This document shows, piece by piece, positions 1,974 to 34,125 of a stretch of DNA of 64,000 bases. A program made the translations under genes and the position numbers. The notes under the pieces were generated by a model that worked only from the letters and a program-made list of their open reading frames with translations, made no database searches and had not been told where the DNA came from. The first letter of the stretch is position 1, and each line of letters begins with the position of its first letter. The DNA is from Candidatus Omnitrophota bacterium. Its GTDB lineage: Bacteria; Omnitrophota; Gorgyraeia; Duberdicusellales; 4484-171. Location of the stretch: NCBI GenBank assembly GCA_016935525.1, contig JAFGQU010000022.1:12471-76470 (forward strand), given 5' to 3'.

Positions 1974-2678
1974 TTATTTTCCGCTCTTGATCTCATCGGA
2001 CAAAATGATCGCATCGGCGATCTCTTTCATCGGCACTCGTTTATCCATACTGGACTTACGGATTAAAGCGTAGGCCGCGTTTTCGGTCAGTTTCTGTTCG
2101 CGCATAAGGATACCTTTGGCTTTTTCTACTTTCTTGCGAGTTTCCAGCTCTTCCTGAATAATCTTCGATTTCACCATCAATTCGGTATTTTCAATAGCGA
2201 CCGCAGCCTGGTTAGCCACGGCACTTAAAAGGTCGATATCACTTTTGGTAAATTTGTACACATCGGTAGTATAACAATTGATCACTCCGATTAATTTTTT
2301 CTTTACCAGCATCGGTACACTGAGCATAGATACCAGGCCTTCACGACGGGCAAGCTGTTTTTCTTTATATTGCGGATCTTTAGCTACATCAAGAATGACC
2401 ATCGGTTTTTTTTCTTTCGCGACCAGCCCGACAATCCCTTCTCCCAGCTTGATACTGCGTTCTTTAAGATAGGCCTGGCTCATCGCCTGGGTCGCCCTGA
2501 TTTTCAATTCCTGTGTTTTTTCTTCAATCAGCCATAATGCGCAGATCTTCGCCCGCATTACGTTGGCGGTAAGGGTGACGATCAGTTTCAGTACATCTTC
2601 GAGATAAAGGTCGGAAGTGATCGCTTTACTGATCTTACTTAACGTCACAATATAGTCTTTATAGCTGGTTTTTGGCAT
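1974..2678 (-). CDS. GAF domain plus ANTAR RNA-binding antiterminator-type regulator
   Basis: N-terminal GAF-like region. C-terminal ELETRKKVEKAKGILMREQKLTENAAYALIRKSSMDKRVPMKEIADAIIL is a classic ANTAR helix pair (AmiR/NasR-like). Confidence 0.75.
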   Translation of the reverse strand: MPKTSYKDYIVTLSKISKAITSDLYLEDVLKLIVTLTANVMRAKICALWLIEEKTQELKIRATQAMSQAYLKERSIKLGEGIVGLVAKEKKPMVILDVAKDPQYKEKQLARREGLVSMLSVPMLVKKKLIGVINCYTTDVYKFTKSDIDLLSAVANQAAVAIENTELMVKSKIIQEELETRKKVEKAKGILMREQKLTENAAYALIRKSSMDKRVPMKEIADAIILSDEIKSGK

Positions 2679-14081: not shown

Positions 14082-14138
14082 GATATATAAAATACAAAAA
14101 CCTTCGCCGTTTTTAGCGAAGGTTTTACTTGACCCAAA

Positions 14139-14503: not shown

Positions 14504-15952
14504 TTAGAATGTCGGCAACTCGGAATTTCCCATAAGATAGCGGTCGATATGATGTGCTGCCCGGCGGCCTTCAGAGATTGCCCAGACGATCAGGGATTGG
14601 CCGCGATGGGCATCGCCGCAGGCAAATATGCCTTTTTGCGAGGTCATAAACCTTTGGTCGGTCTGAGCGTTATTCCGGTTATCTTTTTTGATCCCGAGGT
14701 CGTCCAGTAATCCCTGTTGGGGATGTAAGAACCCTACCGCTAAAATGACCAGATCGGCATCAATATCGAATCCGCTGCCCGGTATTTCCTGCATGAGCGG
14801 ACAGGATTCGGGACTGTTCGGGTCTTTTTTAAATTCGACTTCCACACATTTGATTTTTTTGATCTCACCATTTTTTCCTACAAACTCTTTGGTGAGTACC
14901 GACCAATGACGGTTTCCTCCTTCTTCATGACTGGAAGAAGTTTTTAAAAGCATCGGATAGGCCGGCCAGGGATCGTTTTCTCTACGGCACTGAGGCGGTT
15001 GCGGAAGAAGTTCGATTTGAACCACGCAAGAAGCATCCTGACGATGGGCTGTACCCACGCAATCCGAACCGGTATCTCCTCCTCCGATCACTACTACCCG
15101 TTTACCCTGGGCGGTGATCATTTTTTCAGGAACAGTTATCCCGGCAATCCGGCGGTTATTCTGTATAAGATAATCCATCGCAAAATAGATACCGTTAAGG
15201 TCCCGGCCGGGAAGAGTGAGGTCCCGGGGAACCCGGGAACCGGTCGCGATACAGATCGCGTCAAATCTATTCCGTAACGTTTCGGGTTCGAGGTCTTTAC
15301 CGATTTCGATATTTGTCTCAAATCGGACTCCTTCTTGTTCCCATATCCGCAGCCGGCGGTCGATCACCTGTTTTTCCAGTTTAAAATCAGGGATCCCGTA
15401 GCGCAAGATGCCTCCGCATTTTTCATCTTTTTCATACACGGTTACCGTATGGCCGGCTTGATTTAGTTGTGCCGCACAACTCAATCCCGCCGGTCCCGAT
15501 CCGATTATCGCCACCTTTTTCCCGGTACGCGATTGCGGCGGGCGAGGCCGGATCAGGCCATGGGTAAACCCGTATTCAATGATCGAGAGTTCATTTTCCC
15601 GGATAGTGACCGGATCATCATTGATCCCTAATACGCAGGCATATTCACAAGGCGCCGGGCATACCCGTCCGGTAATTTCCGGAAGATTATTGGTTGTGCC
15701 TAACAGTTGTAACGCTTTTTCCCAACGCCCTGAGATCATCGCGTCGTTCCATTCCGGAATATAATTTCCGACAGGACAGGCCCAATGACAAAAAGGAGTA
15801 CCGCAATCCATACAGCGTGATGCCTGTTCGGCCGATTTCTCATCACTACGTAACAAAGACACTTCTTTATAATCTTTTATCCGTTCGCAGACCGGCCGAT
15901 ACGGTGTTTTTTCTCTTTTTGTCTTTAAAAACGCTTTTACGTCCTTCGCCAT
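14504..15952 (-). CDS. gltD: Glutamate synthase (NADPH) small subunit
   Basis: Two Cys clusters ([23 protein letters not shown]). GSGPAGL FAD/NAD folds. 482 aa. Directly downstream of gltB. Confidence 0.9.
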
Positions 15953-16061
15953 TGCTCACTCCGTTCGCTACACAGATGATCGCTGATTTTATACTGATGA
16001 GCGCAGATATTTGCATCTGTGATTATATGCTTCTCCAGTTTCTGTAGCAATCTGCGTATAA

Positions 16062-19000
16062 TCAATCCGATACTTCGGTCAATCCTAATTTCTTGTCGAC
16101 ACCTTGCATTTCCAGGATCTTTTTATATTCTAACGGCATTATCTTTACGAATTTTTCCACACAATCGTTAAAATTATCCAATACTTTTTTGGCGACGGTA
16201 CTTTGAGTATATTTATAATGATTACTCACTAAAGAATGAATAAGTTGAGTATCATCCTCATGTAGGGTCTCAAATTTTACCATGCTCAGGTTACATTTTG
16301 CCCGGAAATCCTCTTCGGTATCCCATACATAAGCGATTCCTCCGCTCATTCCCGCGGCAAAGTTTCGCCCGGTACGTCCTAAGACCACTACCCGTCCCCC
16401 GGTCATATATTCACAGCCATGGTCGCCGACTCCTTCGACTACGGCATAGAGACCGGAATTACGAATACAAAACCGTTCGCCGGCAATCCCGCGGATATAG
16501 GCTTCGCCCGATATCGCTCCGTAAAAAGAAGTGTTTCCGATAATAATATTCTCCTGGGGAATATATTCGGCGTTACGGTCGGGATAGATGATGATTTTCC
16601 CGCCGGAGGTACCTTTGCCGACATAATCATTAGCCATGCCTTCTAATTCGAACGTGATCCCTTTCGCAAGCCAGGCTGCGAAACTCTGGCCGGCAATACC
16701 CCGGAATTTGATCTGGATCGTATCTTCCAGAAGCCCTTCTTCTCCGTAAAATCTACATACCTCACCGCTTAACATCGCTCCGGTAGTACGGTCGGTATTT
16801 TTAATCGATACTTCAAATTTTACCGGTTCGGAATTATTATTTAAAGTATACCGGCATAGATCGATAAGCTTTCGGTCAAGCACGCTGTCTATTCGGTGAT
16901 CCTGAGTACGTTGACAATAAGTGCCTACATCCGGCGGTACCTGCGGTTTATAGAGTATCCGCGAGAAATCGATCCGGGTCGCTTTCCAGGGCAGGATATT
17001 GGTATCGACTTCTAAAAGGTCGGTACGGCCGATAAGCTCATCGATCGTCCGTATTCCCAGAGAAGCCATGATCTCACGCAGTTCTTCAACAACAAAGTTA
17101 AAATAATTGACGATATGTTCCGGACGGCCCTGAAATTTTTTCTGCAAAAGATCATCCTGGGTCGCTATTCCTACCGAACAATTATTTAGATGACAATGCC
17201 GTAACATGACGCATCCCATTATAATCAATGTTGCGGTACAGAATCCGAATTCTTCGGCTCCCAGAATGGCAGCGATTGCGACATCTCTTCCGGTACGTAA
17301 TTGCCCGTCGGTCTGCAGGCGTACCCGTGACCGCAGGTCGTTTAAGACTAAGGTTTGATGCGTTTCCGATACCCCCAGTTCCCAGGGTAACCCGGCATGG
17401 CGGATAGAACTGACCGGAGACGCTCCGGTCCCGCCGTCTCCGCCGGAAATAAGGATCATATCGGAATGTCCTTTCGCTACGCCGGCGGCAATAGTGCCTA
17501 CTCCGATTTCCGAGACCAGTTTTACGCTGATCCGCGCGTGCGGATTGGTGTTTTTCAGATCAAAAATAAGTTGAGCCAGGTCTTCGATCGAGTAAATATC
17601 ATGATGCGGCGGCGGTGAGATTAAAGTGACCCCTGGTGTCGTGTATCTGGTTTTCGCGATGGTAGGCGATACTTTATGACCGGGCAGTTGTCCTCCTTCG
17701 CCCGGTTTCGCTCCTTGAGCGATCTTTATCTGCAATTCGTCGGCATTCGTAAGATAGTTTGTGGTTACTCCAAACCGGCCGGACGCGACCTGTTTTATCG
17801 CGCTGCGCCGAGAATCTCCGTTAGGATGAGGGATAAACCGTGCGGGGTCTTCGCCTCCTTCACCGGTATTTGATTTTCCACCGAGCTTATTCATGGCGAT
17901 TGCCAGGGTTTCATGGGCGCCCCGGGAAATAGAACCGAAACTCATCGCTCCGGTAGCGAACCGTTTAAAAATATCTTCTTTCGGTTCGACCTCATCGATA
18001 GGGATAGTCTCAGACCTCTTGAATTTCAGCAGACTGCGTAATGTCGTCGGCTGTGCCGATTGATCGTTGATCAGGCGGGCAAATTCCCGATATTTCTGAG
18101 GATCGTTTTTACGGGTAGCGTCCTGCAGGGCGGCGATACTGTGCGGGTTCCAGAGATGGAACTCTCCGTCCCGTTTCCACTGGTAAAGCCCTCCGGTATC
18201 CAAAAGTGCGTTATACCCTGAACGTTGTGGGTAAGCATTGTGGTGTCGAAGAATCGTCTCGCGCGCGATGATCTCGAAATCCACTCCGCCGATACGGGAT
18301 ACCGTACCGGTAAAACTCCTTTCGATCACTTCATCGGCAACGCCTAAGGCTTCGAATATCTGAGCCCCGCGATAACTCTGTAACGTAGATATACCCATTT
18401 TGGAAAGGACCTTTTTGATACCTTTATCTATCGCTTGTATATAATTTTTTTTGGCCGTCGGGATATCCAGTTCCAGCTCCCCTTCTCTCTCGAGATATTC
18501 GATCGATTCAAGAGCAAGATAGGGGTTTATTGCGCCGCACCCGTAACCGAAAAGTAACGCAAAATGGTGGACTTCCCGCGGTTCGGCGCTTTCTAAGATC
18601 AACGCGATCTGAGAACGGGAGGTTTTCCGTACCAGATGGTGGTGTACGGTCCCGATAGCCAGTAGTGCCGGTATGGCCGCGTGATCCTGGTTGAATCCGC
18701 GGTCACTTAACACGATAAACGTATATCCTTCTTTAATCGCCGCCTCGGATTCCCGGCAGATCGCGTCAAGACGTTTCATGAAATTATCGGAAGAATCGGC
18801 TTTAAACAGCAACGAAACCGTTTTGGTCTTAAATCCTTTCTCTTTAATATTTTTTATGAGAACAAGGTCTTCATCGGTAAGGATCGGGTGCGGCAGGTGG
18901 ACTCGCCGGGCATGAGCTTCGGTCTCATCGAGAAGATTGCGCCGTGAGCCCATAAAACATTCCAGGCTCATCACGATCTCTTCGCGGATCGGATCGATTG

Positions 19001-20591
19001 CCGGGTTGGTCACCTGCGCAAAAAGCTGTTTAAAATAGCTATACAATAATTGCGGTTTTTTAGAAAGTACGGCAAGCGGCGTATCGTTTCCCATCGAGCC
19101 GGTAGGTTCTAATCCGGTATGGGCCATCGGTTTGATGATCATCTTTAGATCTTCGCGCGTATAGCCGAAGGCTTTAAGCGAAGTCAAAGTTTTCTGTCCG
19201 TTTGCAGGCGGGGTTTCTTTCCTGGGAAGTTCACCCAGTTCTACTAAAGTGTTTTTAAGCCACTCGGCGTACGGTTTTTGGATAGAAACCGTTTCTTTCA
19301 CTTCCTGATCGTCTATGATACGACCTTCTTCGGTATCGACAAAAAACATTTTCCCCGGTTCCAGCCGGCCGGAAGAGATGATGTCACCGGCGGGAATATC
19401 GAGTACCCCTACCTCTGATGCCATTACTACCATATTGTGTGTAGTGATGATATACCGCGAAGGGCGCAGACCGTTACGGTCCAGGACCGCTCCGATCCTG
19501 GTCCCGTCAGTAAAAGCAATACTCGCCGGGCCGTCCCAGGGTTCCATTAAACAGGACATATATTTATGGAACGACCGGACCCGTTCATCAAGAAAGGTGT
19601 TCTGTTCCCAGGCCGAAGGGATAAGCATCATCATCGCGTGAGGAAGACTTCGTCCGGCCAATACCAACAGTTCCAACACCAGATCGATAGTCGCCGAATC
19701 GCTCAGTCCTGGAATAATGATCGGTTTTAGTTTTTCGATGTCCGGGCCGAACAACGGAGATGCTAAAAGCTGTTCTTTTGCGCTCATCCAGTTGATATTT
19801 CCCCGTAATGTGTTGATCTCACCGTTATGGGCGAGAAACCTGAACGGCTGGGCAAGGTCCCAGGTAGGAAACGTATTGGTACTGTAACGGGAATGGACCA
19901 GGGCAATCGAACTTTTAAGGTCGGGATCATTAAGGTCGACAAAAAAGCTCTGTAATTGATCGGGCATCAGAAGCCCTTTATAAGAGAACGTACGGCAGGA
20001 AAGGTTGGTGATATAGAAAAACGATTTTTGAGTTATGTTCGATGCAGCGACGGTTTTTTCTACCAGACGGCGGATCACGTACAGTTTTCGTTCGAACGCA
20101 AGCTGATCGGCAAGGTCCGGGGATCTTTGGATAAAAATCTGTTCGATGGCCGGTTGGGCCTTTTTTGCTCCTTTTCCGATATCGGTATTATTCACGGGAA
20201 CCTGCCGCCAGCCCAGTAACGTCTGTCCTTCTTCGCTCACGGTTTTGGCAAAAATATCTTTTAAGAGCTTTTTTTCCCGGGTATCCGTAGGTAAAAAGAT
20301 CAATCCGGTTCCGTAATCGCCATAATCCGGTAATTTGATGCGGGCGGTATCGGCTATTTTCCGGAAAAATTCGTGAGGAGTTTGGATGAGAATTCCCGCA
20401 CCGTCACCGGTCTTAGGGTCTGATCCTACCGCGCCGCGATGAGCCAGACGGTTTAAAACCCCTATTCCCTGCTGAACGAGAGCATAGGATTTTTCCCCCT
20501 TTATGTGACAGACAAATCCGACCCCGCAGGAATCTTTTTCAAATTGTGGGTCATATAAACCTTGTTTTTGAGGGAAATGAGTATATTCCAT
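16062..20591 (-). CDS. gltB: Glutamate synthase large subunit
   Basis: 1509 aa. N-terminal class II amidotransferase CGVGF. Central and FMN domains. C-terminal GXGXG domain. Confidence 0.95.
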   Translation of the reverse strand: MEYTHFPQKQGLYDPQFEKDSCGVGFVCHIKGEKSYALVQQGIGVLNRLAHRGAVGSDPKTGDGAGILIQTPHEFFRKIADTARIKLPDYGDYGTGLIFLPTDTREKKLLKDIFAKTVSEEGQTLLGWRQVPVNNTDIGKGAKKAQPAIEQIFIQRSPDLADQLAFERKLYVIRRLVEKTVAASNITQKSFFYITNLSCRTFSYKGLLMPDQLQSFFVDLNDPDLKSSIALVHSRYSTNTFPTWDLAQPFRFLAHNGEINTLRGNINWMSAKEQLLASPLFGPDIEKLKPIIIPGLSDSATIDLVLELLVLAGRSLPHAMMMLIPSAWEQNTFLDERVRSFHKYMSCLMEPWDGPASIAFTDGTRIGAVLDRNGLRPSRYIITTHNMVVMASEVGVLDIPAGDIISSGRLEPGKMFFVDTEEGRIIDDQEVKETVSIQKPYAEWLKNTLVELGELPRKETPPANGQKTLTSLKAFGYTREDLKMIIKPMAHTGLEPTGSMGNDTPLAVLSKKPQLLYSYFKQLFAQVTNPAIDPIREEIVMSLECFMGSRRNLLDETEAHARRVHLPHPILTDEDLVLIKNIKEKGFKTKTVSLLFKADSSDNFMKRLDAICRESEAAIKEGYTFIVLSDRGFNQDHAAIPALLAIGTVHHHLVRKTSRSQIALILESAEPREVHHFALLFGYGCGAINPYLALESIEYLEREGELELDIPTAKKNYIQAIDKGIKKVLSKMGISTLQSYRGAQIFEALGVADEVIERSFTGTVSRIGGVDFEIIARETILRHHNAYPQRSGYNALLDTGGLYQWKRDGEFHLWNPHSIAALQDATRKNDPQKYREFARLINDQSAQPTTLRSLLKFKRSETIPIDEVEPKEDIFKRFATGAMSFGSISRGAHETLAIAMNKLGGKSNTGEGGEDPARFIPHPNGDSRRSAIKQVASGRFGVTTNYLTNADELQIKIAQGAKPGEGGQLPGHKVSPTIAKTRYTTPGVTLISPPPHHDIYSIEDLAQLIFDLKNTNPHARISVKLVSEIGVGTIAAGVAKGHSDMILISGGDGGTGASPVSSIRHAGLPWELGVSETHQTLVLNDLRSRVRLQTDGQLRTGRDVAIAAILGAEEFGFCTATLIIMGCVMLRHCHLNNCSVGIATQDDLLQKKFQGRPEHIVNYFNFVVEELREIMASLGIRTIDELIGRTDLLEVDTNILPWKATRIDFSRILYKPQVPPDVGTYCQRTQDHRIDSVLDRKLIDLCRYTLNNNSEPVKFEVSIKNTDRTTGAMLSGEVCRFYGEEGLLEDTIQIKFRGIAGQSFAAWLAKGITFELEGMANDYVGKGTSGGKIIIYPDRNAEYIPQENIIIGNTSFYGAISGEAYIRGIAGERFCIRNSGLYAVVEGVGDHGCEYMTGGRVVVLGRTGRNFAAGMSGGIAYVWDTEEDFRAKCNLSMVKFETLHEDDTQLIHSLVSNHYKYTQSTVAKKVLDNFNDCVEKFVKIMPLEYKKILEMQGVDKKLGLTEVSD

Positions 20592-20602
20592 AGCTCTTTC
20601 AT

Positions 20603-20875
20603 TTAACCGAGGATACCGCGATAATAATCGACGTCAATCCGGTATTTTTCTATTTTGGTATGAAGCGTGTTACGGTTGATCCCCAACATTTTAGCGGCTT
20701 TCAGTTTATTGCCGAAGGTGCGTTCCAGGACTATTTCAATCAACTTTTTTTCAATGAGAGCTACGATGTCTTTATAGATTTCCCGGTGTTTGCCTTTGAT
20801 GATCAAAGAATCCACTTCTTTTTTTAAGTCGAGATAAAGGTTTTCTTCGTGAGGATCAGGATTTAATTTTTCCAT
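20603..20875 (-). CDS. Fis-family (HTH_8) small DNA-binding protein
   Basis: C-terminus NKLKAAKMLGINRNTLHTKI matches the Fis/NtrC-type HTH. 90 aa, 11 nt upstream of gltB. Confidence 0.55.
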   Translation of the reverse strand: MEKLNPDPHEENLYLDLKKEVDSLIIKGKHREIYKDIVALIEKKLIEIVLERTFGNKLKAAKMLGINRNTLHTKIEKYRIDVDYYRGILG

Positions 20876-20994
20876 TGTATCAGGATGATTGTTTTTACCC
20901 GAACGATTTTTCGATATTTTCTGTCATAGGATGCCTTATTTTTAGGCAAAAAAGAGCAAAATTTTTTCCGTACCGGCTTTACTTTAAAAATGGA

Positions 20995-21699
20995 CTATTG
21001 AACCGGTATGTTTTTATTGATCAAACGGGCGAAATTAAGAAAAATCCGTTGCGCGGCCAGGTTATATGTATCTTCGATATCGTGAGCCCGCAGGACCATC
21101 TGAGTACAATACGAGTTGTTCCAACGGTCCCGGTGAACATATTCTTTTATCCATTCGACGATCATTTTTGGTTTGATCTCCACATGAAACTGTAACGCAT
21201 AGGCGTTTCCGATACGGAACGCCTGATCACAGATAGCCGATGTCGCCAGTAATTGGCTTCCCGGAGGGATAGTGAACGTATCGTGATGCCATTGGAACAC
21301 TTCCATATTTTCGCCTATTCCTTCGAATAAAGGATCGGTTAAGCCTTCCGGCGTGAAATCTATAGTATGCCAGCCGATTTCTTCGGATGAGGCTCGCGTC
21401 ACTATTGCTCCGGATGCTTTCGCAATCAGTTGGGCTCCCAGGCAAATTCCTAATACGGGGATTTTCTGCGTCAGGATATCTTGGATAAAACTATTCTCTT
21501 TTGCCAGAAAAGGGAATTTTTTCTCTTCATAGACGTTCATCGAGCCGCCCAGGATCACTACCGCATCGGCATCGGCTGGATCCGGTAGTGAATCCCCGGC
21601 GTAAAGACGAATAGTTTGAACCGGCAGTTTCCCTGATTGAAAGAAATCCAGAAGTAATCCCGGTCCTTCGATATCAATATGCTGTAGAAAATAGATCAT
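20995..21699 (-). CDS. Class I glutamine amidotransferase (GATase1), stand-alone
   Basis: VVILGGSMNVYEE...IPVLGICLGAQL catalytic-Cys context. HxE at the C-terminus (QFHVE). Confidence 0.75.
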   Translation of the reverse strand: MIYFLQHIDIEGPGLLLDFFQSGKLPVQTIRLYAGDSLPDPADADAVVILGGSMNVYEEKKFPFLAKENSFIQDILTQKIPVLGICLGAQLIAKASGAIVTRASSEEIGWHTIDFTPEGLTDPLFEGIGENMEVFQWHHDTFTIPPGSQLLATSAICDQAFRIGNAYALQFHVEIKPKMIVEWIKEYVHRDRWNNSYCTQMVLRAHDIEDTYNLAAQRIFLNFARLINKNIPVQ

Positions 21700-21717
21700 C
21701 GCGGTCAGAATGTTTTT

Positions 21718-23823
21718 TCACAGGACCAGTAACAGTTCCTGATATTTTGCCAATGGCCATAATTCGTCGGCGACTACCGTCTCGGCGGTATCTATCGCTT
21801 CCCGTAATGTATCCAGAGCCCGAGCTCCTTTGGTCGCGTACGCTTCGGAGATCTTTATAAGCGTAGATTCTTTTTCACAGGCGGCCATGGCTTTCTCAAG
21901 ATTGTGCGTCCCGGTAAGGATCTTAGCATACAGATCATTGAGTAATTTGATCTCAGTGTTAAACGGGGACGATTTTATGCCGGCAGTTTTTGCCGCGGCC
22001 TGCGATGGAGCGATAAGCGCGATCTGTTGAGCGATTGCCGGTAAGATCATGGTCCGGGCGATATTGACCGCTGTTTTAAATTCGATATCTTTAGTCTTAT
22101 TGTACGCTTCCAGTTTGATCTCTATTTTAGAGTGGAGCTCTTTTTCGGTCAAAATGTCGAACCGTTTAAACAGCTCAAGCGCATCTTTGTTCAGAAATAA
22201 CTTTAATGCTTCAGGAGTGTTTTTGGTGTTAGGCAACCCGCGTTTTGCAGCTTCTTTATGCCATTTCTCGTCATAATTATTTCCTTCGAACCGTACTCGT
22301 TTAGTTTCTTTAAAGACCTCTTCAAGTACCGCGATCGCTTTTTCCGCAGGACTGGTCTTTGTCTTTTTCTTTTCAATCCTATCGGCAATTTCTTCATAAC
22401 CGTAAGCCATGATCAGATTGAGCATGGTCGCGGCTTCCGAACAGTTTTGACTTGACCCTACTGCCCGGAATTCAAATTTATTTCCGGTAAAAGCCAGCGG
22501 AGAAGTCCGGTTACGGTCGGATGTATCTTTGGCTACTTTAGGAAGATTTTGTACTCCGACATAAATTTCCGAGAGTTTTTTATCGGTAATCGTCCCTAAC
22601 CCTTCGATCTGATCGAGTAACGCGTCGAGATATTCTCCTAAATATACCGAAATGATAGCCGGCGGCGCTTCGTTTGCCCCTAACCGATGATCATTACCGG
22701 CATCGGCGACCGCCGACCGCAGGAGCCCGCCATATTTATGTACTCCCAGCAATATCGCGCCCAGCGAGATAAGAAAGATGATGTTATCTTTTGGCGAACC
22801 GGAAGGATCAAAATAGTTCGCGCCGGTATTATCTCCGATCGACCAGTTAAAATGTTTTCCGGAACCATTGACTCCGGCAAGCGGTTTTTCGTGTAATAAC
22901 GCGACTATTTCGTGAGCTTCGGCGACTTTTCTCATGATATCCATAAGCTGAAGGTTATGATCAATCGAGAGGTTTACCTCTTCATACAGCGGCGCGATCT
23001 CAAACTGGTTCGGCGATACTTCGTTATGACGGGTTTTTGAGGGTATCCCGCGACGATAAAGCTCCCGGTCCATATCTTCCATGAACATGATCACTTTTTC
23101 TTTTATCGCCCCGAAATAATGGTCTTCCATCTGCTGACCTTTTGCCGGAGTCGCTCCGAAAAGCGTTCTTCCGCAAATTTGCAGATCAGGACGGGTTCCA
23201 TAAAGAGCTTGGGAAAAAAGAAAGTATTCCTGTTCGGGGCCGCCATAGACTTTGATCTGTTCGGTATGTTTGTGCCCTAGGAGACGATTGATACGTAATG
23301 CCGCTTCGTTGACCGCGTTCAGCGAACGCAGTAACGGGGTCTTGATATCGAGGACTTCCCCGGTCCAGGAAAGAAATATCGAAGGGATCACCAGAGTTTT
23401 AGTCTCTCCCGCTTCCAGAAGAAAAGCCGGAGACGTCGGGTCCCAGGCCGTATATCCTCTGGCTTCAAACGTCGAACGTATTCCTCCGGAAGGAAATGAT
23501 GACGCGTCCGGTTCTGATTGGATCAATTGTTGTGCTGAGAAACGTTCGACGATATCGCCCCCTTCACCGTAAGAAATAAAAGCATCGTGTTTTTCGGCGG
23601 TACCGCCCCGTTGCGGCTGGAACCAATGGGTGAAATGAGTCGCGCCGTTTTCGATTGCCCATTCTTTCATGGCGTGGGCGACATCACCGGCAATCGATTG
23701 GTCCAGAGGTTTTCCGCTTTCAATAGTTGCCAATAGTTTGCGGTACACATCTTTATTAAGTTTTTCCAGCATCACTTTCTTACTGAATGTCAGTTCTCCG
23801 AAGATATCACTTATCTTAGGCAT
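21718..23823 (-). CDS. glnN: Glutamine synthetase type III
   Basis: About 700 aa, GS-III-like N-terminus (THFTHWFQPQRGGTAEKHD). AAAAAGGAGGT lies 7 nt before the second ATG (MPKISD), so the start is set at ~23823 rather than 23844. Confidence 0.8.
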   Translation of the reverse strand: MPKISDIFGELTFSKKVMLEKLNKDVYRKLLATIESGKPLDQSIAGDVAHAMKEWAIENGATHFTHWFQPQRGGTAEKHDAFISYGEGGDIVERFSAQQLIQSEPDASSFPSGGIRSTFEARGYTAWDPTSPAFLLEAGETKTLVIPSIFLSWTGEVLDIKTPLLRSLNAVNEAALRINRLLGHKHTEQIKVYGGPEQEYFLFSQALYGTRPDLQICGRTLFGATPAKGQQMEDHYFGAIKEKVIMFMEDMDRELYRRGIPSKTRHNEVSPNQFEIAPLYEEVNLSIDHNLQLMDIMRKVAEAHEIVALLHEKPLAGVNGSGKHFNWSIGDNTGANYFDPSGSPKDNIIFLISLGAILLGVHKYGGLLRSAVADAGNDHRLGANEAPPAIISVYLGEYLDALLDQIEGLGTITDKKLSEIYVGVQNLPKVAKDTSDRNRTSPLAFTGNKFEFRAVGSSQNCSEAATMLNLIMAYGYEEIADRIEKKKTKTSPAEKAIAVLEEVFKETKRVRFEGNNYDEKWHKEAAKRGLPNTKNTPEALKLFLNKDALELFKRFDILTEKELHSKIEIKLEAYNKTKDIEFKTAVNIARTMILPAIAQQIALIAPSQAAAKTAGIKSSPFNTEIKLLNDLYAKILTGTHNLEKAMAACEKESTLIKISEAYATKGARALDTLREAIDTAETVVADELWPLAKYQELLLVL

Positions 23824-23945
23824 GGTAACCTCCTTTTTCTTCATCGGGTTTGACTTACATAATAAGAAACGTTCCCTAACCCTTATCGTCAGAGAACGCC
23901 TTTGTTCTTTTTCTGCCTATTTTTCGGGCACTTCGTTGTACTAAA

Positions 23946-23978
23946 TATACAAGTAATAATCTTGCCGATTTGGTAACC
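23946..23978 (-). promoter_or_regulatory. Conserved 33-nt motif (copy 1) upstream of glnN: TATACAAGTAA-N12-TTGCC-N6-GGTAACC
   Basis: About 85% identical to 28677..28709. Contains an imperfect palindrome TTGCCGATTTGGTAA. About 100 nt upstream of the glnN start. Confidence 0.35.
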
Positions 23979-23983
23979 ATTTT

Positions 23984-24325
23984 TTATCCTATCGCCGTAT
24001 TGCCGGTTTCCCCGGTGCGAATACGGATACATTGGCCTAAATCTATGACAAATATTTTACCATCTCCGATGTTTCCTGTCTTGGCCCCTTTTATGATCGC
24101 AGCAATAGTAGATTGCACAAAATCCTCGTTTACCGCGATCTCCAGGCGTATTTTCTTCAGGAGATTTACCTCGTGGATCACGCCACGATAGGTTTCAGTA
24201 TACCCTTTTTGCTGCCCGCAGCCAAGAGCATTTGTTACGGTCATTTTATAGACTTCAGCTTCATAAAGGGCTTTTTTTACATCCGGTAATTTATGCGGTT
24301 GAATCATTGCAATTATTAATTTCAT
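23984..24325 (-). CDS. glnK: P-II nitrogen regulatory protein
   Basis: Near-canonical P-II sequence. T-loop [12 protein letters not shown]. 113 aa. Immediately downstream of amt. Confidence 0.9.
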
Positions 24326-24339
24326 TTTTATCCCTCCGT

Positions 24340-25683
24340 TTAGCGGGTAGTGAATATTTGAAACCCGGAATAGGATTCCATCCCATGTTGGCTAATATCC
24401 AATCCTTTCAATTCTTCTTCACGTGATACGCGTAAACCGGTCAACTTTTTCAACAGGGTAAACACCAGCCCCATAGTAACGGCAACGAATACGGCCGTAG
24501 TAAATACTCCCAAAGCCTGTATACCGAGTTGAGTGAATCCGCCTCCGTATATCAGGCCGTTATGAGCCAATCCCATAGCTTTCTGCCCGAATATACCTAC
24601 TGCGAGAGTACCCCAGATCCCGTTCATAGCGTGAACGGGAACGGCACCGACAGGATCGTCAACTCCGATTTTATCTAAAAATATTGTTCCCAGTACGACA
24701 ATGATCCCAGCGATTGCTCCGATGATCATGGCCGCCCATGGCTCAACGAACGCACAAGGAGCGGTTATGGCTACCAGTCCGGCGAGTGCGCCATTCATCG
24801 TCATGGTCAGATCCGGTTTCCCAAATAGTTTCCAGGCAAAAAACATTCCCGCAAGCGCTCCGCTTACCGCGGAAATATTCGTGGTCATAGCTACGTGAGC
24901 AATAAGGCTCCCGTCGCCGACACGTAATGTCGAACCGGGATTAAATCCAAACCAAGCAAACCATAATATAAGCGTACCCAACGAGGCCAATGTCATCGAA
25001 TGACCTTCGATCGCATTGGCTGATCCATCTTTATTAAATTTACCGATGCGCGGGCCGAGTATGATAGTTCCCATAAGTGCGGCGGTGCCGCCTACCGTAT
25101 GGACCACGGTAGATCCCGCAAAGTCAGCGAAATTAAGTTGTGACAACCATCCTCCGCCCCAGATCCAGTGGCCGACAATGGGGTATACTGTAGCGGAAAT
25201 AAGGAAAGAATAAATAAGGTATGCTTTAAATTTCATGCGTTCGGCGATTCCCCCGGCAACGATAGTTGCGGCCGCACCGCAGAATACCGCATGAAAAAAC
25301 CAGGTAGCATAAAGAGGAAGATGCCCTTCATGTGAGGCACCGATCAACGCCCATCCCTTAAATCCCATAAACGCATTCCCCGCTCCGAACATGATCGCAT
25401 AACCAAAAATATAGAACCCCATCGATGCCATACAGAAATCTAAAAAGTTGTTCATGAGGATATTACAGGTATTCTTTGTACGAATAAGACCGGCTTCCAG
25501 CATTCCGAATCCGGCCTGCATAATGAATACCATAAATGCCGCGATCATCACCCATAGCGTATCAATACCGGCGGTGATCGTGGCGATATCGGTCTGTGCC
25601 CACAGCTTAGAAGGTAGGATAAATAAACTCAATAGGGTGAGGATCCCTAACCCTGCATATTTCATTTTTGTCGATTTCATCAT
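24340..25683 (-). CDS. amt: Ammonium transporter (Amt)
   Basis: Amt family throughout. AAGGAG lies 6 nt before the internal ATGATG, so the start is set at ~25683 (MMKSTKMKY..., signal-peptide-like). Confidence 0.9.
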
Positions 25684-25740
25684 CAACTCCTTTAGTTTAT
25701 TCATTTGATTAACCGATTGAATAAAATGAGCCAAAAAAAA

Positions 25741-25923
25741 TCAGATCGTTTTCAACTTATCGTCCAGAAAACCAGCGTACACTCTATTGATACGATTGGT
25801 TTTCAGCCAACGTTCTAGGGTGGAGATCTGGATATCGGTTTTTTTCGATAATTCATATAGCGTATACCCTCTTTCTTGCTTTAAGTTGCGTAATTTATCA
25901 ATAAGTTCTTTGTTTTCCATCAA
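25741..25923 (-). CDS. Small HTH DNA-binding protein (60 aa) embedded between glnK(2) and amt(1)
   Basis: RGYTLYELSKKTDIQISTLERWLKTNRI is an XRE-like HTH. No clear RBS. Confidence 0.4.
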   Translation of the reverse strand: MMENKELIDKLRNLKQERGYTLYELSKKTDIQISTLERWLKTNRINRVYAGFLDDKLKTI

Positions 25924-25934
25924 TGTGTCTCAAA

Positions 25935-26276
25935 TTATCCGATTGCTTTGGAACCGGTCTCTCCGGTACGGATCCGGATACACTCGCCTAAATCGATTAC
26001 AAATATCTTCCCGTCACCGATATTTCCCGTACGGGCGCCTTTGATAATGGCATCAATAGTAGGTTGAATAAAATGCTCATTGACCGCGATTTCTAAACGG
26101 ACCTTCTTTAAGAGATTTACTTCATGGATTACTCCGCGATAGGTCTCGGTAAACCCTTTCTGCTGCCCGCAGCCAAGAGCATTGGTAACCGTCATTTTAT
26201 AGACCTCGGCCTCATAAAGGGCTTTTTTTACGTCGGGGAGTTTATGCGGTTGAATCATCGCGACTATAAGTTTCAT
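25935..26276 (-). CDS. glnK: P-II nitrogen regulatory protein (second copy)
   Basis: About 90% identical to the 23984..24325 product. Confidence 0.9.
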
Positions 26277-26305
26277 CGTATCTCTCCTCTTTTTTTATCC
26301 CATTT

Positions 26306-26338
26306 CTTGTACCGGGAAGACAACTTCCCGGGTACAAG
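26306..26338 (-). other. Intercistronic stem-loop between amt(2) and glnK(2)
   Basis: CTTGTACCGGGAAG-acaa-CTTCCCGGGTACAAG, a ~14-bp stem. No U-tract follows on the minus strand, so probably not a terminator. Confidence 0.5.
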
Positions 26339-26352
26339 AGAATGGCGTTTTA

Positions 26353-27702
26353 TTATTCAGTAGTAAATATCTGGAATCCGCTGTATGATTCCATCCCGTG
26401 TTCACCGATGTCCAGTCCTTTTAATTCTTCGTCAGGAGTTACCCGTAACCCCATTATTACTTTTATGATACCGAAAAGGATCGTTGCCGTACCGAATACC
26501 CAGATAAATACGCTGGCGACACCGATCAACTGGACGATAAATTGTCCCAGTCCCCCTCCGAAAAAGAGGCCGTCGATTCCGCCATACGCGCTTTCGGCAA
26601 ATAATCCGGCAGCCAACGTTCCCCAGGCACCGCATATTCCATGTACTGAAACTGCGCCTACCGGATCATCGATATGAAGTACTTTGTCAATAAACTCTAC
26701 ACTTAACACTACCAACGTCCCGCCGATCGCACCGATGATGATCGCGCTTAACGGTGAAACATTCGCGCACGGTGCGGTAATCGCGACCAGTCCGGCTAAG
26801 GCGCCATTTAAGGCCATACTGGTATCGGGTTTACCGAACCGTATCCAGGCTACACTCATCCCCATAATAGCTCCGGCGGCGGCAGCCAGATTGGTCGTGA
26901 CTGCGATGATCGCGATACTTAAATTCGTCCCGGAAGTAGTACTGCCCGGGTTAAATCCGAACCAGCCGAACCACAGGATGAATACCCCTAACGCTGCTAA
27001 AGGAATATTATGTCCGGGAATAGCATTTGATGAACCGTCTTTATTATATTTCCCTAACCGTGGACCTAACATGATCGCACCGGCAAGTGCGGCCCATCCG
27101 CCGACGGAATGGACGACCGTCGAGCCGGCAAAATCGATCATTCCTTTTGCCGCAAGCCATCCTCCGCCCCAGATCCAGTGGCCGACTACCGGATATATAA
27201 CCGCGGTAATACACACACTGTATGCCAGGTACGCATTAAATTTTGTCCGTTCCGCCATTGCGCCCGATACGATCGTCGCAGCGGTTGCGGCAAATACGGT
27301 TTGAAATATCCAGTAAGTAAATTGCCAAAGCCCTTCGGACGTAGCCGGATTAGCGGTACTTAAAAAGAACCCGTTTTTCCCGAACAGTCCCAATACGCTT
27401 GTTCCGAACATGATTCCGAATCCTACGGCCCAGTAGGCGATTGATCCTACCGAAAAATCCATAAGGTTTTTCATCATGATGTTGGCTGCGTTTTTTGCCC
27501 GGGTAAATCCCGTCTCGACCATGGCAAATCCGGCTTGCATAAAGAATACCAGAAACGCCGCAATAAGCGTCCATACGGTATCGATCGCAATCGCATTGCT
27601 TTCGGGCGTAGCTTCAGCCCACGCCGGCCGAATAACCGCAGTTATCGCCACCAGGAGTATCGGCAGCCATTGTACAGTTTTCAATAAAATCTTTTTAATC
27701 AT
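26353..27702 (-). CDS. amt: Ammonium transporter (Amt), second copy
   Basis: Amt family. Signal-peptide-like N-terminus. RBS AAGGGAGGT before the ATG. Confidence 0.9.
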   Translation of the reverse strand: MIKKILLKTVQWLPILLVAITAVIRPAWAEATPESNAIAIDTVWTLIAAFLVFFMQAGFAMVETGFTRAKNAANIMMKNLMDFSVGSIAYWAVGFGIMFGTSVLGLFGKNGFFLSTANPATSEGLWQFTYWIFQTVFAATAATIVSGAMAERTKFNAYLAYSVCITAVIYPVVGHWIWGGGWLAAKGMIDFAGSTVVHSVGGWAALAGAIMLGPRLGKYNKDGSSNAIPGHNIPLAALGVFILWFGWFGFNPGSTTSGTNLSIAIIAVTTNLAAAAGAIMGMSVAWIRFGKPDTSMALNGALAGLVAITAPCANVSPLSAIIIGAIGGTLVVLSVEFIDKVLHIDDPVGAVSVHGICGAWGTLAAGLFAESAYGGIDGLFFGGGLGQFIVQLIGVASVFIWVFGTATILFGIIKVIMGLRVTPDEELKGLDIGEHGMESYSGFQIFTTE

Positions 27703-27723
27703 AATGTACCTCCCTTATTTAAA

Positions 27724-28521
27724 TTAAAATGCATACGCAAAACTTATCCCGGTATAAAAGCGTTCCGGTTGATTCCCGTCGTTGGCATCTTTTAGATCAT
27801 CTAAAGGTATCGAATAGTTGATCGACGGCGTCATGGTTAACGTGTCGGTCAGAGGTAACGTCAATGCAAGAGAAAGACCGATATCATACCCACTTGTTCC
27901 GGCAATAAAGAGTTTTCGGTTATATCCGAAATGAGAGCCGAAATCAAGCGATATGCCGGTATCTTCGTGAAGCAGGAGACTGTAAGCCATATCCAGCGAA
28001 AAATAACTTCCCAATCCTCCGCCATGGTTCTGGTCGCCGTAATCACGATAATAGGTAAGTGAGGTTTCTACCGGCCAGTCCAGTCCCGGTATTTTGCTCA
28101 ATCCTAATCCGACATAAAATTCACGGCTATACAGGTTTGCCGCGGGAAAATCATAGTACGTATGCCCTACCGATACGCTCAAGAGATCGTTGATCGCTTT
28201 GGTATAATCGATCACATAATCGATCTCGTCCGATTGCCCCCCCTGATTATTGTCGGTATCCCAACTGCTCCAGAAACTGAAGGTGAACCCATAGGCGCTG
28301 ATGTGTATCCCTGGCTGGATGACCGGGTCCCGGTCAAGTAAAAAACCTCTCCAGACATAATCCGAATAGAAATCAAGCGTTCCGGAAATATCAACGTCGA
28401 TATGTAACTCGTCAAGGATACCCGCGCCATACACACTTTTCCCTAAAGGAAAAAGCATGCCGGTAATAAGCAGTACCCCTAAAGTTACGTGCCGTACGGT
28501 TATTAAAAGTGATTTTACCAT
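27724..28521 (-). CDS. Outer-membrane beta-barrel (porin-like) protein, co-operonic with amt
   Basis: Signal peptide MVKSLLITVRHVTLGVLLITGMLFPLGKSVYGAG. Alternating aromatic beta-strand pattern. C-terminal ...ISFAYAF. Start set at the internal Met with RBS AAAGGGGA. The ORF-track extension is likely untranslated. Confidence 0.6.
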   Translation of the reverse strand: MVKSLLITVRHVTLGVLLITGMLFPLGKSVYGAGILDELHIDVDISGTLDFYSDYVWRGFLLDRDPVIQPGIHISAYGFTFSFWSSWDTDNNQGGQSDEIDYVIDYTKAINDLLSVSVGHTYYDFPAANLYSREFYVGLGLSKIPGLDWPVETSLTYYRDYGDQNHGGGLGSYFSLDMAYSLLLHEDTGISLDFGSHFGYNRKLFIAGTSGYDIGLSLALTLPLTDTLTMTPSINYSIPLDDLKDANDGNQPERFYTGISFAYAF

Positions 28522-28571
28522 CGTGTGTCCCCTTTCGTTAAGGCGTTTGTTTGTATATCGGACCATTTTTT

Positions 28572-28630
28572 CAAAAAAAAACGTTTCACTGCACCCCACC
28601 CGGTGTAATGAAACGTCTTTGTTTTTTTAC
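28572..28630. terminator. Bidirectional rho-independent terminator (after the sigma-factor gene, in the leader of the porin-amt operon)
   Basis: AAAAAAAAACGTTTCA...(20-nt loop)...TGAAACGTCTTTGTTTTTTT. A-run on one side and T-run on the other. A second hairpin CACAGTAAA-caatcgtta-TTTACTGTG sits at 28643-28669. Confidence 0.6.
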
Positions 28631-28676
28631 CACTTTGTATACACAGTAAACAATCGTTATTTACTGTGCGTTCAAC

Positions 28677-28709
28677 TATACAAGTAACTGATTACCCGCT
28701 TTGGTAACC
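28677..28709 (-). promoter_or_regulatory. Conserved 33-nt motif (copy 2): TATACAAGTAA-N12-TTACC-N6-GGTAACC, upstream of the porin-amt-glnK operon
   Basis: tatacaagtaactgattacccgctttggtaacc, with perfect palindrome TTACC-cgcttt-GGTAA. Matches the copy upstream of glnN. Confidence 0.35.
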
Positions 28710-28710
28710 G

Positions 28711-29244
28711 TTAACTCAATAAAAGTTCGTGAGCTATATACGCGTACTTATGTTTGATCTTTTTGCCCGTCTTTACTACCATTACATGAGAGATTCCCAG
28801 AGTTTCTCCGATTTCCCGGGTAGTAAATCCGTCTAACTGCATCATAAAGATGTTCCGTTCCCGTACAGTAAGTACAGGCGTGATCTCGCCTAACAGCAGA
28901 TGAGCGTCGATCCAATGAACGGGAAATCCGTCATTCCTGTCCGGTATTTTCTTGTTCAGCGAGTCATGCCCGGTATGTTCAGATTCGGCATCCAGGCTTA
29001 ATGAGACCTTATCCAGAGATCTATACGTTTTCCGAATATAGTTTTTCAGAAAATAATAGCAGTTTTGCAAAATATAACTGTCGGTCTTATTGTTCCAGAA
29101 CCCGGTCATGTTTTGTTCCCAAAGGTGGGTAGAAGCTTCCTGATAGAGATCCTGTTCGTCAAAATAGGTATACCGATTATTGAGTTTATGCGTGATTGCT
29201 TTTAATTTAGGATTCAGTTTGACTATTAATTCTTCGAACTTCAT
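28711..29244 (-). CDS. Sigma-70 family (ECF-like) RNA polymerase sigma factor
   Basis: C-terminal region-4 HTH LTVRERNIFMMQLDGFTTREIGETLGISHVMVVKTGKKI. N-terminal region-2-like segment. RBS AAGGAGG. Confidence 0.55.
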   Translation of the reverse strand: MKFEELIVKLNPKLKAITHKLNNRYTYFDEQDLYQEASTHLWEQNMTGFWNNKTDSYILQNCYYFLKNYIRKTYRSLDKVSLSLDAESEHTGHDSLNKKIPDRNDGFPVHWIDAHLLLGEITPVLTVRERNIFMMQLDGFTTREIGETLGISHVMVVKTGKKIKHKYAYIAHELLLS

Positions 29245-29333
29245 AGGTACCTCCTTAAAAAATAAAAACCCTCATCAAGCTGTCATCGCTTAATGAGGGC
29301 GTCGTTGCCGCTTTTGGAGTTTTCCGGGGCCGT

Positions 29334-29364
29334 AAAAAAGAAAAACCCCAAATTACTTTGGGGC
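29334..29364 (-). terminator. Rho-independent terminator after 29432..30541
   Basis: Minus strand: CCCCAAA-gtaa-TTTGGGG followed by TTTTTCTTTTTT. Confidence 0.65.
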
Positions 29365-29431
29365 ATCTTTGCCTAAACCCGTTTCTACCTACATTGTAGA
29401 AACTATTCTTGTATTAAAGATACCATTAATC

Positions 29432-30541: not shown

Positions 30542-30569
30542 GACGGTTTATTATATCAAAGCAATCGTA

Positions 30570-30610
30570 TAAAAAAACGCCTCTTCCGGTAAAAGAAGAG
30601 GCGTTTTTTG
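30570..30610 (-). terminator. Rho-independent terminator after 30632..32272 (bidirectional-capable)
   Basis: AAAAAAACGCCTCTTC-cggtaaaa-GAAGAGGCGTTTTTTG. An upstream hairpin AACCGCAC-cac-GTGCGGTT at 30611-30630. Confidence 0.65.
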
Positions 30611-30631
30611 TCAAACCGCACGTGGTGCGGT

Positions 30632-32327: not shown

Positions 32328-32377
32328 GGCATCCGTAAAAAATAAAAAACGTCCTTCCTCCTGAAAGAAAGGACGTC
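32328..32377 (-). terminator. Rho-independent terminator after the gltD/nfnB-like gene and its 3' repeat array
   Basis: ACGTCCTT-cctcctgaaaga-AAGGACGT with a long A-run on the + strand (U-run on the transcript). Confidence 0.55.
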
Positions 32378-32461
32378 GTTGTCCTATTGATTTACTATAT
32401 CAATATCGTTTATGCTGTCAAGGGGATTATTAAACAGCGGATAGCGTAGAGCGATTAGCGG

Positions 32462-32600
32462 ACAGATGGAAAATCCCGATCAAATCCAAAGCGCTAAATT
32501 CAAAAAAGGTATTCGCTTTCCCCATTAGGATTTCGGATTTAGAATTTTGGATTTTTAAGCCTGTGACGTGTGACCTTATGTCTATGTGACCTATTTCTTC
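32462..32600. repeat. Composite repeat element: AAATCC x2-3, GGATTT x3, TGTGAC x3 (3' of gltD/nfnB-like gene)
   Basis: aaatcccgatcaaatccaaagcgctaaattc...ggatttcggatttagaattttggattttt, then tgtgacgtgtgaccttatgtctatgtgacc. Its reverse complement has the same module order as 36793..37052. Confidence 0.8.
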
Positions 32601-34003: not shown

Positions 34004-34028
34004 ATTACTAATATAAATGTTCAATGTA

Positions 34029-34106
34029 AAATTAGCATTTAGCAATTAGCAATGTGAAATTCGGAAATTCTCTTATTTCTTCCATTGCTAAATGAAAATT
34101 GCTAAT
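34029..34106. repeat. Inverted array of direct repeats (TTAGCA x3, then TGCTAA x2-3) between the nfnA-like and nfnB-like genes
   Basis: aaattagcatttagcaattagcaatg...cattgctaaatgaaaattgctaattg. Confidence 0.75.
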
Positions 34107-34125
34107 TGATCATTGATAATTTTTC

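Follow-up and report, generated by a model that had tools for sequence, protein, structure and literature searches.

Probable promoters linked to a putative sigma factor, coupled to RNA stop/go hairpins in the leaders, appear to switch on nitrogen-uptake genes in Omnitrophota

In the 64,000-nucleotide (nt) stretch of a Candidatus Omnitrophota bacterium genome analysed here (contig JAFGQU010000022.1, positions 12,471 to 76,470; hereafter the window, whose own coordinates are used throughout), two groups of nitrogen-assimilation genes on the minus strand are preceded by copies of a 33-nt motif. Copy 1 (28677..28709, minus strand), a promoter-like element, begins 1 nt past the stop codon of a gene for a divergent protein of the sigma-70 family (28711..29244, minus strand) and is separated by 155 nt from the downstream ATG (28521) of an operon (23984..28521, minus strand) that encodes, in this order, a TorF-like porin, Amt, P-II, a 60-amino-acid (aa) helix-turn-helix (HTH) protein, a second Amt and a second P-II. 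Copy 2 (23946..23978, minus strand) begins 5 nt past the last stop codon of that operon, which belongs to the second P-II gene, and precedes by 122 nt the ATG (23823) of glnN, the gene for type III glutamine synthetase (GS), which is followed by genes for a class-I glutamine amidotransferase (GATase) and a Fis-type protein that consists only of a 90-aa HTH_8 domain, and by gltB and gltD (14504..23823, minus strand). An earlier examination of the same DNA without database searches (hereafter the sequence-only reading) proposed that the motif, located 100-190 nt upstream of the operon starts and followed by leader hairpins, is a cis-regulatory element common to the nitrogen operons, and the results described below bear out each of these points. 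The mechanism that we arrive at is a different one: the motif copies are most likely promoters of a dedicated sigma factor, and the nitrogen-uptake genes of Omnitrophota appear to be turned on by these promoters in combination with RNA "stop/go" hairpins of the leaders.

Both minus-strand 33-mers quoted in the sequence-only reading are present as exact matches, at 28709-28677 and 23978-23946, although their identity, which had been put at about 85%, amounts by direct count to 25 of 33 positions (76%). Each copy comprises a -35-like block, GTTACC (28708-28703 in copy 1, where a 17-base-pair (bp) spacer follows, and 23977-23972 in copy 2), and a -10-like block, ACTTGTA (28685-28679 and 23954-23948, respectively), with predicted transcription starts at about 28673 (G) and about 23942 (A), all on the minus strand. 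The TTGTATA string that had been suggested as a -10-like element indeed belongs to the second block, the conserved form of which is, however, (T)ACTTGTA. A degenerate pattern of the bases shared by the two copies matches these two sites and no others in 64 kb, and none in 100 dinucleotide-preserving shuffles, with a chance expectation of 0 for the two copies. A weight matrix derived from related loci assigns 35.9 bits to copy 1 and 34.7 bits to copy 2, the next best site in the window scoring -4.6, and, in the window, none of the Fis/gltB genes, the gltA-like operon and the gene for an ANTAR protein was found to be preceded by a weaker copy, so the glnN-GATase-Fis-gltBD genes probably depend on copy 2. 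A generic sigma-70 promoter scan stayed at the background level (21 promoters found versus 19.4 expected) and missed the motif. The string TACTTGTA, which had been noticed to recur near 11 kb, occurs there twice, at 11381-11388 and 11413-11420 on the plus strand, 32 nt apart, in a divergent, AT-rich spacer that precedes an unannotated open reading frame of 116 aa (11475-11825); these occurrences have a negative matrix score and are not accompanied by a GTTACC block, and we treat them as unrelated to the nitrogen motif.

The comparison set included about 200 related loci with 229 sites; to the loci of the closest homologues, a metagenome scan with an alignment of the sigma-like protein added 80 (547 kb). 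In the 547 kb of loci that contain homologues of this protein, GTTACC-N15-17-ACTTGTA occurs 85 times versus approximately 0.05 times expected, without exception on the strand of the sigma gene (85/85), and with a spacer of 17 bp in 80 of the 85 sites and of 16 bp in the remaining 5. The matrix consists of an A-rich upstream stretch, the block gGTTACCAAAa, seven unconserved positions, a T-tract, TACTTGTA and, 5-8 bases on, T/R/n/A. Conservation extends to positions that were not part of the search pattern, namely, A7 (99%), the A-tract after the first block, T18-23, and T35/R36/A38, which fall where a start site is expected and include a conserved purine 6-7 nt downstream of the -10-like block. 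The downstream genes start about 80-300 nt from the motif. In the loci of the closest homologues, the order sigma-porin-amt-P-II and the location of the motif just past the sigma stop codon are both retained and the palindrome mentioned below is not; in locus L002, for instance, the motif reads GTTACCAAAAGACGAAGATCTTTACTTGTA. As judged from the aligned sites, this geometry, with a -35 hexamer, a 17-bp spacer, a -10 hexamer and a purine start, is that of a promoter of the sigma-70 family rather than that of an operator for a dimer.

The latter possibility deserves consideration because it was the mechanism favored in the sequence-only reading, in which the inverted repeat TTACC-N6-GGTAA was taken for the operator of a dimeric HTH regulator, with the 60-aa XRE-type HTH protein, the Fis-type protein or a global nitrogen regulator as candidates. 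Copy 1 does contain the perfect 5+5 inverted repeat and is even flagged as a small hairpin by a terminator scan, and genes for the 60-aa HTH and Fis-type proteins are frequent members of the regulon. In copy 2, however, the repeat is imperfect (TTACC-N6-GGCAA), and among the related sites it is found in only 4 of 229; GGTAA at a distance of 4-8 nt is seen in 10 of 229 sites versus about 3 (maximum 12) in shuffled spacers. What is conserved instead are two asymmetric, strictly oriented blocks, and the two candidate binders are encoded in only 24 (HTH) and 26 (Fis) of the 106 motif-bearing stretches among the matches listed. Because the palindrome is not conserved, the dimeric operator is unsupported, and we consider it extremely improbable; largely refuted by the comparative data, the operator interpretation was wrong in mechanism and right in its biological theme.

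The two blocks could also be viewed as direct-repeat half-sites, (G/T)TTAC-N15-TTTAC, about 20 bp apart and bound by a response regulator of the OmpR/GlnR type. TTAC is indeed present in both blocks, GTTAC fits the a-site of GlnR, and, in actinomycetes, GlnR boxes (gTnAc-n6-GaAAc) control genes of these kinds. Nevertheless, there is no conserved b-site 6 nt on, as positions 11-17 of the spacer carry less than 0.2 bits, the 20-bp spacing departs from an 11-bp periodicity, and no gene of the OmpR family is linked to the motif in the loci examined, which makes binding by such a regulator very unlikely. The actinobacterial GlnR box as such was rejected on the grounds that positions 12-16 are unconserved, the match of GTTAC to the a-site notwithstanding. 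Two further classes of sites were also rejected: the sigma-54 promoter, as there is no GG-N10-GC and positions 12-13 after G0/G1 hold 0.05-0.12 bits, and the NtcA box, as the matrix includes no conserved GTA-N8-TAC and copy 1 has GTA-N6-TAC only.

In the loci anchored on the sigma gene, the genes that follow the motif encode GS, Amt, P-II, porins, Fis-type/gltB and glutamate synthase. Products without a match among the reference proteins of the window were identified as porins of other families, type I GS, a permease of the APC type, a GAF-ANTAR protein, NifH and a protein resembling Hcp; both GS III and GS I are among the motif-preceded genes. In other genomes, nitrogen fixation and the antiterminator are thus also part of the regulon, the motif preceding nifH, a gene for an Hcp-like (hybrid-cluster) protein and a GAF-ANTAR gene in L092 (1042), L194 (709), L085 (381) and L180 (5818). 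A scan that was independent of the sigma gene, in which one genome per species for 185,579 species of GTDB was searched with the pattern GTTACCA-N14-TTACTTGTA, yielded at least 150 sites in at least 120 stretches. Among the matches listed, 136 of 150 sites share a stretch of 8 kb or less with nitrogen, sigma or ANTAR genes, which is the outcome that the sequence-only reading had demanded: rather than being scattered across unrelated genes, the motif recurs in many further copies at nitrogen genes, genome- and phylum-wide. This association holds for 95 of the 96 sites in metagenome-assembled genomes (MAGs) labelled Omnitrophota, for 41 of the 49 in MAGs labelled otherwise, and for none of the five in named species outside Omnitrophota (Flavobacterium, Selenomonas, Suilimivivens, Runella and Chitinophaga), where the matches behave as chance occurrences. 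The full complement of sigma gene, motif and ANTAR elements is also seen in MAGs labelled Planctomycetales, Syntrophaceae, Syntrophorhabdaceae, delta proteobacterium, Elusimicrobia or Firestonebacteria (L090, L100, L108, L113, L128, L134, L151, L160, L191, L194, L196 and others). Unless these labels or bins are erroneous, the system reaches beyond Omnitrophota; several of the labels, including Planctomycetales, Syntrophaceae and Elusimicrobia, may be artefacts of binning or taxonomy.

The regulator gene that is most tightly coupled to the motif, and that was overlooked in the sequence-only reading, is the one whose stop codon precedes copy 1 by 1 nt. The 177-aa product is 100% identical to a database entry described as a sigma-70 family RNA polymerase sigma factor of Candidatus Omnitrophica bacterium, and among its 365 homologues, all those that bear a name are labelled Omnitrophica or Omnitrophota. 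A match to TIGR02937, the superfamily of sigma-70 factors with extracytoplasmic function (ECF), spans residues 2-166 (E=1e-9), and of 25 family members, 21-22 match the Sigma70_r4 profile and 10 the Sigma70_r2 profile. The best matches of an AlphaFold 2 model (pLDDT 83.6) in the PDB, identified with Foldseek, are full-length ECF sigma factors, namely, SigH, SigL, SigE, RpoE and SigW (probability ~1.0, E ~2e-3 for the top matches). Given the full-length superfamily match, the matches to regions 4 and 2 and those of the structural model, we treat this protein as a divergent, putative ECF-like sigma factor that consists of the sigma2 and sigma4 domains, an assignment with which the evidence is consistent if weak in score, and as the candidate reader of the motif. 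The segments presumed to read DNA, LKNYIRK in region 2 and ISHVMVVK in region 4, are near-invariant across the family, in apparent parallel with the invariant promoter blocks.

The linkage between this gene and the motif is tight. When up to one mismatch per block is allowed, the motif is found within 450 nt past the stop codon in 109 of 133 distinct sigma homologues, mostly at 5-40 nt. Conversely, the gene that ends just upstream of a site is most commonly the sigma gene (52 of 126 among the matches listed), followed by the genes for P-II (40) and GS (11). Whether the loci are anchored on the motif or on the sigma gene, no other regulator gene is coupled to the motif as tightly, the genes for the 60-aa HTH, Fis-type and ANTAR proteins each being present in about one quarter of the motif-bearing stretches among the matches listed. 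The neighbours of the sigma gene are a DAO oxidoreductase, PsbP_2-like or GAF-ANTAR gene on the upstream side and a porin gene on the downstream side. Going by this linkage, a promoter of the adjacent sigma factor would be the best-supported reading of the motif.

Several observations weigh against it. The family scores below the curated cutoffs of TIGR02937 (38 versus 42.9 bits for the window protein) and of Pfam, and the Foldseek matches have E-values of only about 1e-3 and low TM-scores, the low structural scores being attributable to the mobility of the two sigma domains. Of the sigma homologues outside the 109, four are located at contig ends and 20 are not followed by the motif; some of these 20 have degenerate copies, and one sub-clade is found in a different context. 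The members of this sub-clade (L020, L039, L041 and L082), probably a paralogue that serves a different regulon, have another conserved sequence, tgtaaaaaatacagggat..., in common downstream. In only 1 of 126 cases is the motif found in the 600 nt that precede the sigma start and, for that reason, the sigma gene is not autoregulated from it; no anti-sigma domain was seen in the Pfam listings of the sigma neighbours, which were inspected at the level of Pfam. In both window copies, TTG is directly followed by a hexamer, TATAGT or TATATT, that would permit a -10 element of the sigma-70 type shifted by 5 nt. Furthermore, the totals of the species-genome scan are lower bounds, and the proposed pairing of the motif with the sigma factor is deduced from linkage and conservation.

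Some of these observations are what would be expected if the motif were a promoter read by another sigma factor, housekeeping or alternative, with GTTACC as the site of an activator and the adjacent sigma-like gene merely a co-regulated neighbour: the TATAGT and TATATT hexamers resemble sigma-70 -10 elements, the sigma gene is not under the control of the motif, and some of the sigma homologues are without it. Across the family, however, the positions equivalent to TATAGT/TATATT are weakly conserved, with T at the -7 equivalent of TAnnnT in 34% of the sites, whereas ACTTG is essentially invariant, and a -35 element resembling that of sigma-70 is missing at the proper distance. Moreover, an ordinary promoter of the sigma-70 type, TTGACA-N16-TATAGT (32421-32394, minus strand), is present in the window itself, upstream of the genes for a 546-aa Glu_synthase-domain protein, a DAO protein and the sigma factor, so the motif does not represent the housekeeping consensus, from which it looks different. 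Together with the absence of any other regulator gene that is linked to the motif as tightly as the sigma gene, these features render the involvement of another sigma factor unlikely.

Beyond the motif, the leaders of both operons carry functional-looking hairpins, and each ends in a terminator-like stem followed by a T-run; the putative antitermination layer that these elements form was overlooked in the sequence-only reading. On the minus strand, the attenuator of leader 1 (28573..28668) opens with a long hairpin (28668-28642), followed by hairpin P1, TAC[AAAGTG]GTA (28639-28628, loop in brackets), and hairpin P2, AAAC[AAAGAC]GTTT (28624-28611), which overlaps the 5' arm of an intrinsic terminator (28617-28573) that ends in T9. 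Leader 2 (23861..23941, minus strand) includes P1, GTAC[AACGAA]GTGC (23941-23928), a conserved TAGGCA box (23920-23912) and P2, GAAC[AAAGGC]GTTC (23907-23894), the latter overlapping a terminator-like hairpin (23900-23861). In both cases, the 3' arm of P2 (GACGTTT and GGCGTTC, respectively) is the 5' arm of the terminator stem, and a T-run follows.

The same arrangement is found downstream of nearly every copy of the motif: a short hairpin (G/A)CAC[AnnGnn]GTG(C/T), a short A-rich linker and then (A/G)AC[AnAGGC]GTT, the 3' arm of which doubles as the 5' arm of a terminator stem that is rich in GC (GGCGTTC...GAACGCC) and precedes a T-run. Often, another module comes next, AGAC[GnAGGC]GTCT with its own terminator. 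Of the 226 leaders, 188 contain one or more 3-bp hairpins with an A..G.. hexaloop (21% of shuffles), and 111 contain two or more (2.2% of shuffles); the value for upstream coding controls is 14%. The fourth pair of P1, to which no selection had been applied, forms in 43 of 46 aligned dual hairpins (AU 23, GU 11, GC 9), and the inner pairs switch from CG to UA and from AU to GC, that is, covary. Targets of ANTAR proteins consist of two small hairpins with hexaloops in which A1 and G4 are conserved, are mutually exclusive with a terminator, and mostly occur upstream of genes for P-II, Amt, GS, glutamate synthase and nitrogenase (PMC3369931); the GnfR site of Geobacter, CAGGCAANGGCGCC, is of the same form as the leader hairpins described here (PMC2995071). 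By their sequence features, the leader attenuators are members of this known class, for which binding of the protein and the resulting read-through are predicted. An Rfam search (E<=1) over positions 20000-32000 gave no match in either leader and only a chance-level Thr_leader elsewhere. One to three copies of a palindromic repeat of about 40 nt, GGCACGCCAAACAATCCGATATGTTTGGGCGT..., interrupt leaders in L065 (about 1600-1690), L040, L048 and L066; the repeat looks like an element of the REP (repetitive extragenic palindromic) or MITE (miniature inverted-repeat transposable element) type.

Alternatively, the motif itself might act as RNA, for example, as a signal for the processing or stability of read-through transcripts. 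Indeed, it is located just past the stop codon of a co-directional gene (sigma, P-II or GS) with no terminator in between and, being so close behind same-strand stop codons, the copies are probably also transcribed by read-through. The two blocks, though, show neither mutual complementarity nor covariation and match no Rfam family, whereas the fixed 17-bp spacing, the spacer with its A- and T-tracts and the conserved purine 6-7 nt on are features of DNA promoters, and a role of the motif as RNA has very little to recommend it in our judgment.

The sigma gene is itself preceded by a leader with two ANTAR-type attenuators in series (29257..29403, minus strand). Following a first hairpin (29403-29381), attenuator 1 consists of GGC[AAAGAT]GCC (29373-29362) and a terminator (29364-29334), and attenuator 2 of GGC[AACGAC]GCC (29309-29298) and a terminator (29300-29257); GGC/GCC hairpins with a T-run are found upstream of the sigma gene in 63% of the sigma homologues. 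The canonical promoter upstream of the Glu_synthase-DAO-sigma genes is likewise followed by an attenuator, AGGAC[AACGAC]GTCCT (32385-32370, within 32337..32421, minus strand), and a terminator, which is strong (z = -5.3). Because a TTGACA-N16-TATAGT promoter is succeeded here by a hairpin and a terminator, the operon of the 546-aa protein seems to be gated by ANTAR and not to depend on the GTTACC/ACTTGTA motif. The candidate RNA-binding antiterminator is a GAF-ANTAR protein encoded in the window (1974..2678, minus strand; PF03861, E=3e-19). It is 70% identical to the product of the GAF-ANTAR gene that immediately precedes the sigma gene in L002-L004, and homologues occupy this position in approximately 30 loci. 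Two tandem GAF-ANTAR paralogues precede the sigma gene in L018, L038, L059, L061 and L070, and the stems fall into different classes, GGC/GCC in the sigma leaders and CAC/GTG and AAC/GTT in the target leaders; the two observations may reflect two antiterminator specificities.

Taken as a whole, we consider it likely that both copies of the motif are sigma-specific -35/-10 promoters of a nitrogen regulon coupled to ANTAR attenuation, and we hold with higher confidence that the motif is a promoter-like element of this regulon. The 33-nt motif would be the core promoter of the Omnitrophota nitrogen-assimilation regulon, with GTTACC as the -35-like element, 17 bp, ACTTGT(A) as the -10-like element and a start 6-8 nt downstream, and it would be read by the 177-aa ECF-like factor (28711-29244) rather than by the housekeeping sigma. 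The transcripts would then meet the leader attenuators, with two A..G.. hexaloop hairpins of which the 3' one overlaps the intrinsic terminator, and the GAF-ANTAR protein (1974-2678) would bind this pair of hairpins, presumably under nitrogen limitation, and permit read-through. As the sigma gene lies behind two attenuators of its own, antitermination would both raise the level of the sigma factor and open the target leaders: the signal that activates ANTAR would lead to read-through of the sigma leader, production of the sigma factor and initiation at GTTACC-N17-ACTTGTA, and the same antiterminator would also have to open every target leader, which amounts to a feed-forward AND gate. The likely entry point of the cascade is the TTGACA-N16-TATAGT promoter with the ANTAR-like attenuator upstream of Glu_synthase-DAO-sigma. 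We lean slightly towards the broader proposition that this small, lineage-specific sigma factor and the GAF-ANTAR protein form a coherent gate of this type that runs the whole program of nitrogen acquisition in Omnitrophota (amt, glnK, GS, glutamate synthase (GOGAT), porins and, where present, nifH), without an anti-sigma factor and in place of sigma-54/NtrC, NtcA, GlnR or TnrA. A search of the literature on Omnitrophota sigma, ECF and ANTAR proteins, on ECF sigma factors in an amt or GS context and on GTTACC promoters returned no description of this sigma family, of the promoter or of the link to ANTAR, which does not prove novelty; the ANTAR part is of a known kind, and it is for the sigma/promoter pair and the wiring that no description was found.

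The proposed system combines features of several known ones. ECF (group 4) sigma factors include sigmaE of E. coli, SigW of B. subtilis (TGAAAC-N16-CGTA) and SigH and SigL of M. tuberculosis. The Omnitrophota protein, at about 175 aa, resembles them in having only the sigma2 and sigma4 domains and in its best structural matches, and the system as a whole in the two short promoter blocks separated by 16-17 bp, the small functional regulon and the linkage of the sigma gene to a target promoter. However, the GTTACC and ACTTGTA blocks differ from all ECF promoters known to us. Autoregulation and an adjacent anti-sigma gene are typical of ECF factors, if not universal; in Omnitrophota, by contrast, the promoter lies downstream of the sigma gene, which precludes autoregulation, no anti-sigma partner is seen, control of the sigma factor appears to be exerted by leader attenuation, and the regulon serves nitrogen assimilation in the cytoplasm instead of the response to envelope stress. 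With the ANTAR systems, such as GnfK/GnfR of Geobacter, NasR of K. oxytoca, AmiR of P. aeruginosa, EutV of E. faecalis and the predicted regulons of Desulfotomaculum and Pelobacter, the leaders share the dual hairpins with A1/G4 hexaloops, the 3' one overlapping the terminator, the position upstream of amt, glnK, GS, GOGAT and nif genes, and an ANTAR gene nearby. The differences are that the sensor is a GAF domain instead of a receiver, a NIT domain or an AmiC partner, that the attenuators are joined to a putative dedicated promoter of an alternative sigma factor, and that the sigma gene is itself attenuated, through stems of the GGC/GCC class.

As in the sigma-54/NtrC system of Proteobacteria, an alternative sigma factor with an unusual promoter would serve largely glnA, amtB-glnK and nif genes; the Omnitrophota protein, however, belongs to the unrelated sigma-70 family, and no enhancer-binding AAA+ activator is linked to it. 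The resemblance to the NtcA system of cyanobacteria (GTA-N8-TAC and a -10 element TAN3T) is that a conserved element replaces the -35 region at nitrogen genes, yet a dimer of the CRP family recognizes the NtcA box, which is palindromic, whereas the Omnitrophota element is asymmetric. The NtcA box is centred near -41.5, and sigma-54 promoters have GG at -24 and GC at -12.

Two other features of the window are recorded here. A large imperfect inverted repeat (34028-34123), with arms of 31-46 nt that are 71-77% complementary and contain the boxes ATTGCTAA(T/A) and TTAGCAAT, is located between a gene for a DHODB-like electron-transfer protein (34126-34998) and the gltA-like gene (32591-34045) and could be an operator or an RNA hairpin. 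Just downstream of gltD, at 12012-14222 on the minus strand, a radical-SAM protein (TIGR03916) and its TIGR03915 partner are encoded, a putative DNA modification or repair pair.

Nitrogen control is among the best-studied regulatory problems in bacteria. To our knowledge, each of the major phyla that have been studied uses a different master device, be it sigma-54/NtrC, NtcA, GlnR, TnrA or AmtR. As Omnitrophota are uncultivated, their regulation can be read from sequence only, and the present analysis offers a precise, testable wiring diagram for the entire phylum, complete with a promoter consensus, a 177-aa candidate sigma factor that is amenable to testing in E. coli or in vitro, and the target RNAs of the ANTAR protein. 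The specificity of the promoter matrix suffices for annotating nitrogen regulons and for spotting mis-binned Omnitrophota contigs in metagenomes, and the orthogonal sigma/promoter pair is a possible part for synthetic biology. If the proposed wiring is true, it would provide an example of an ECF-like sigma factor that is controlled by attenuation instead of an anti-sigma factor.

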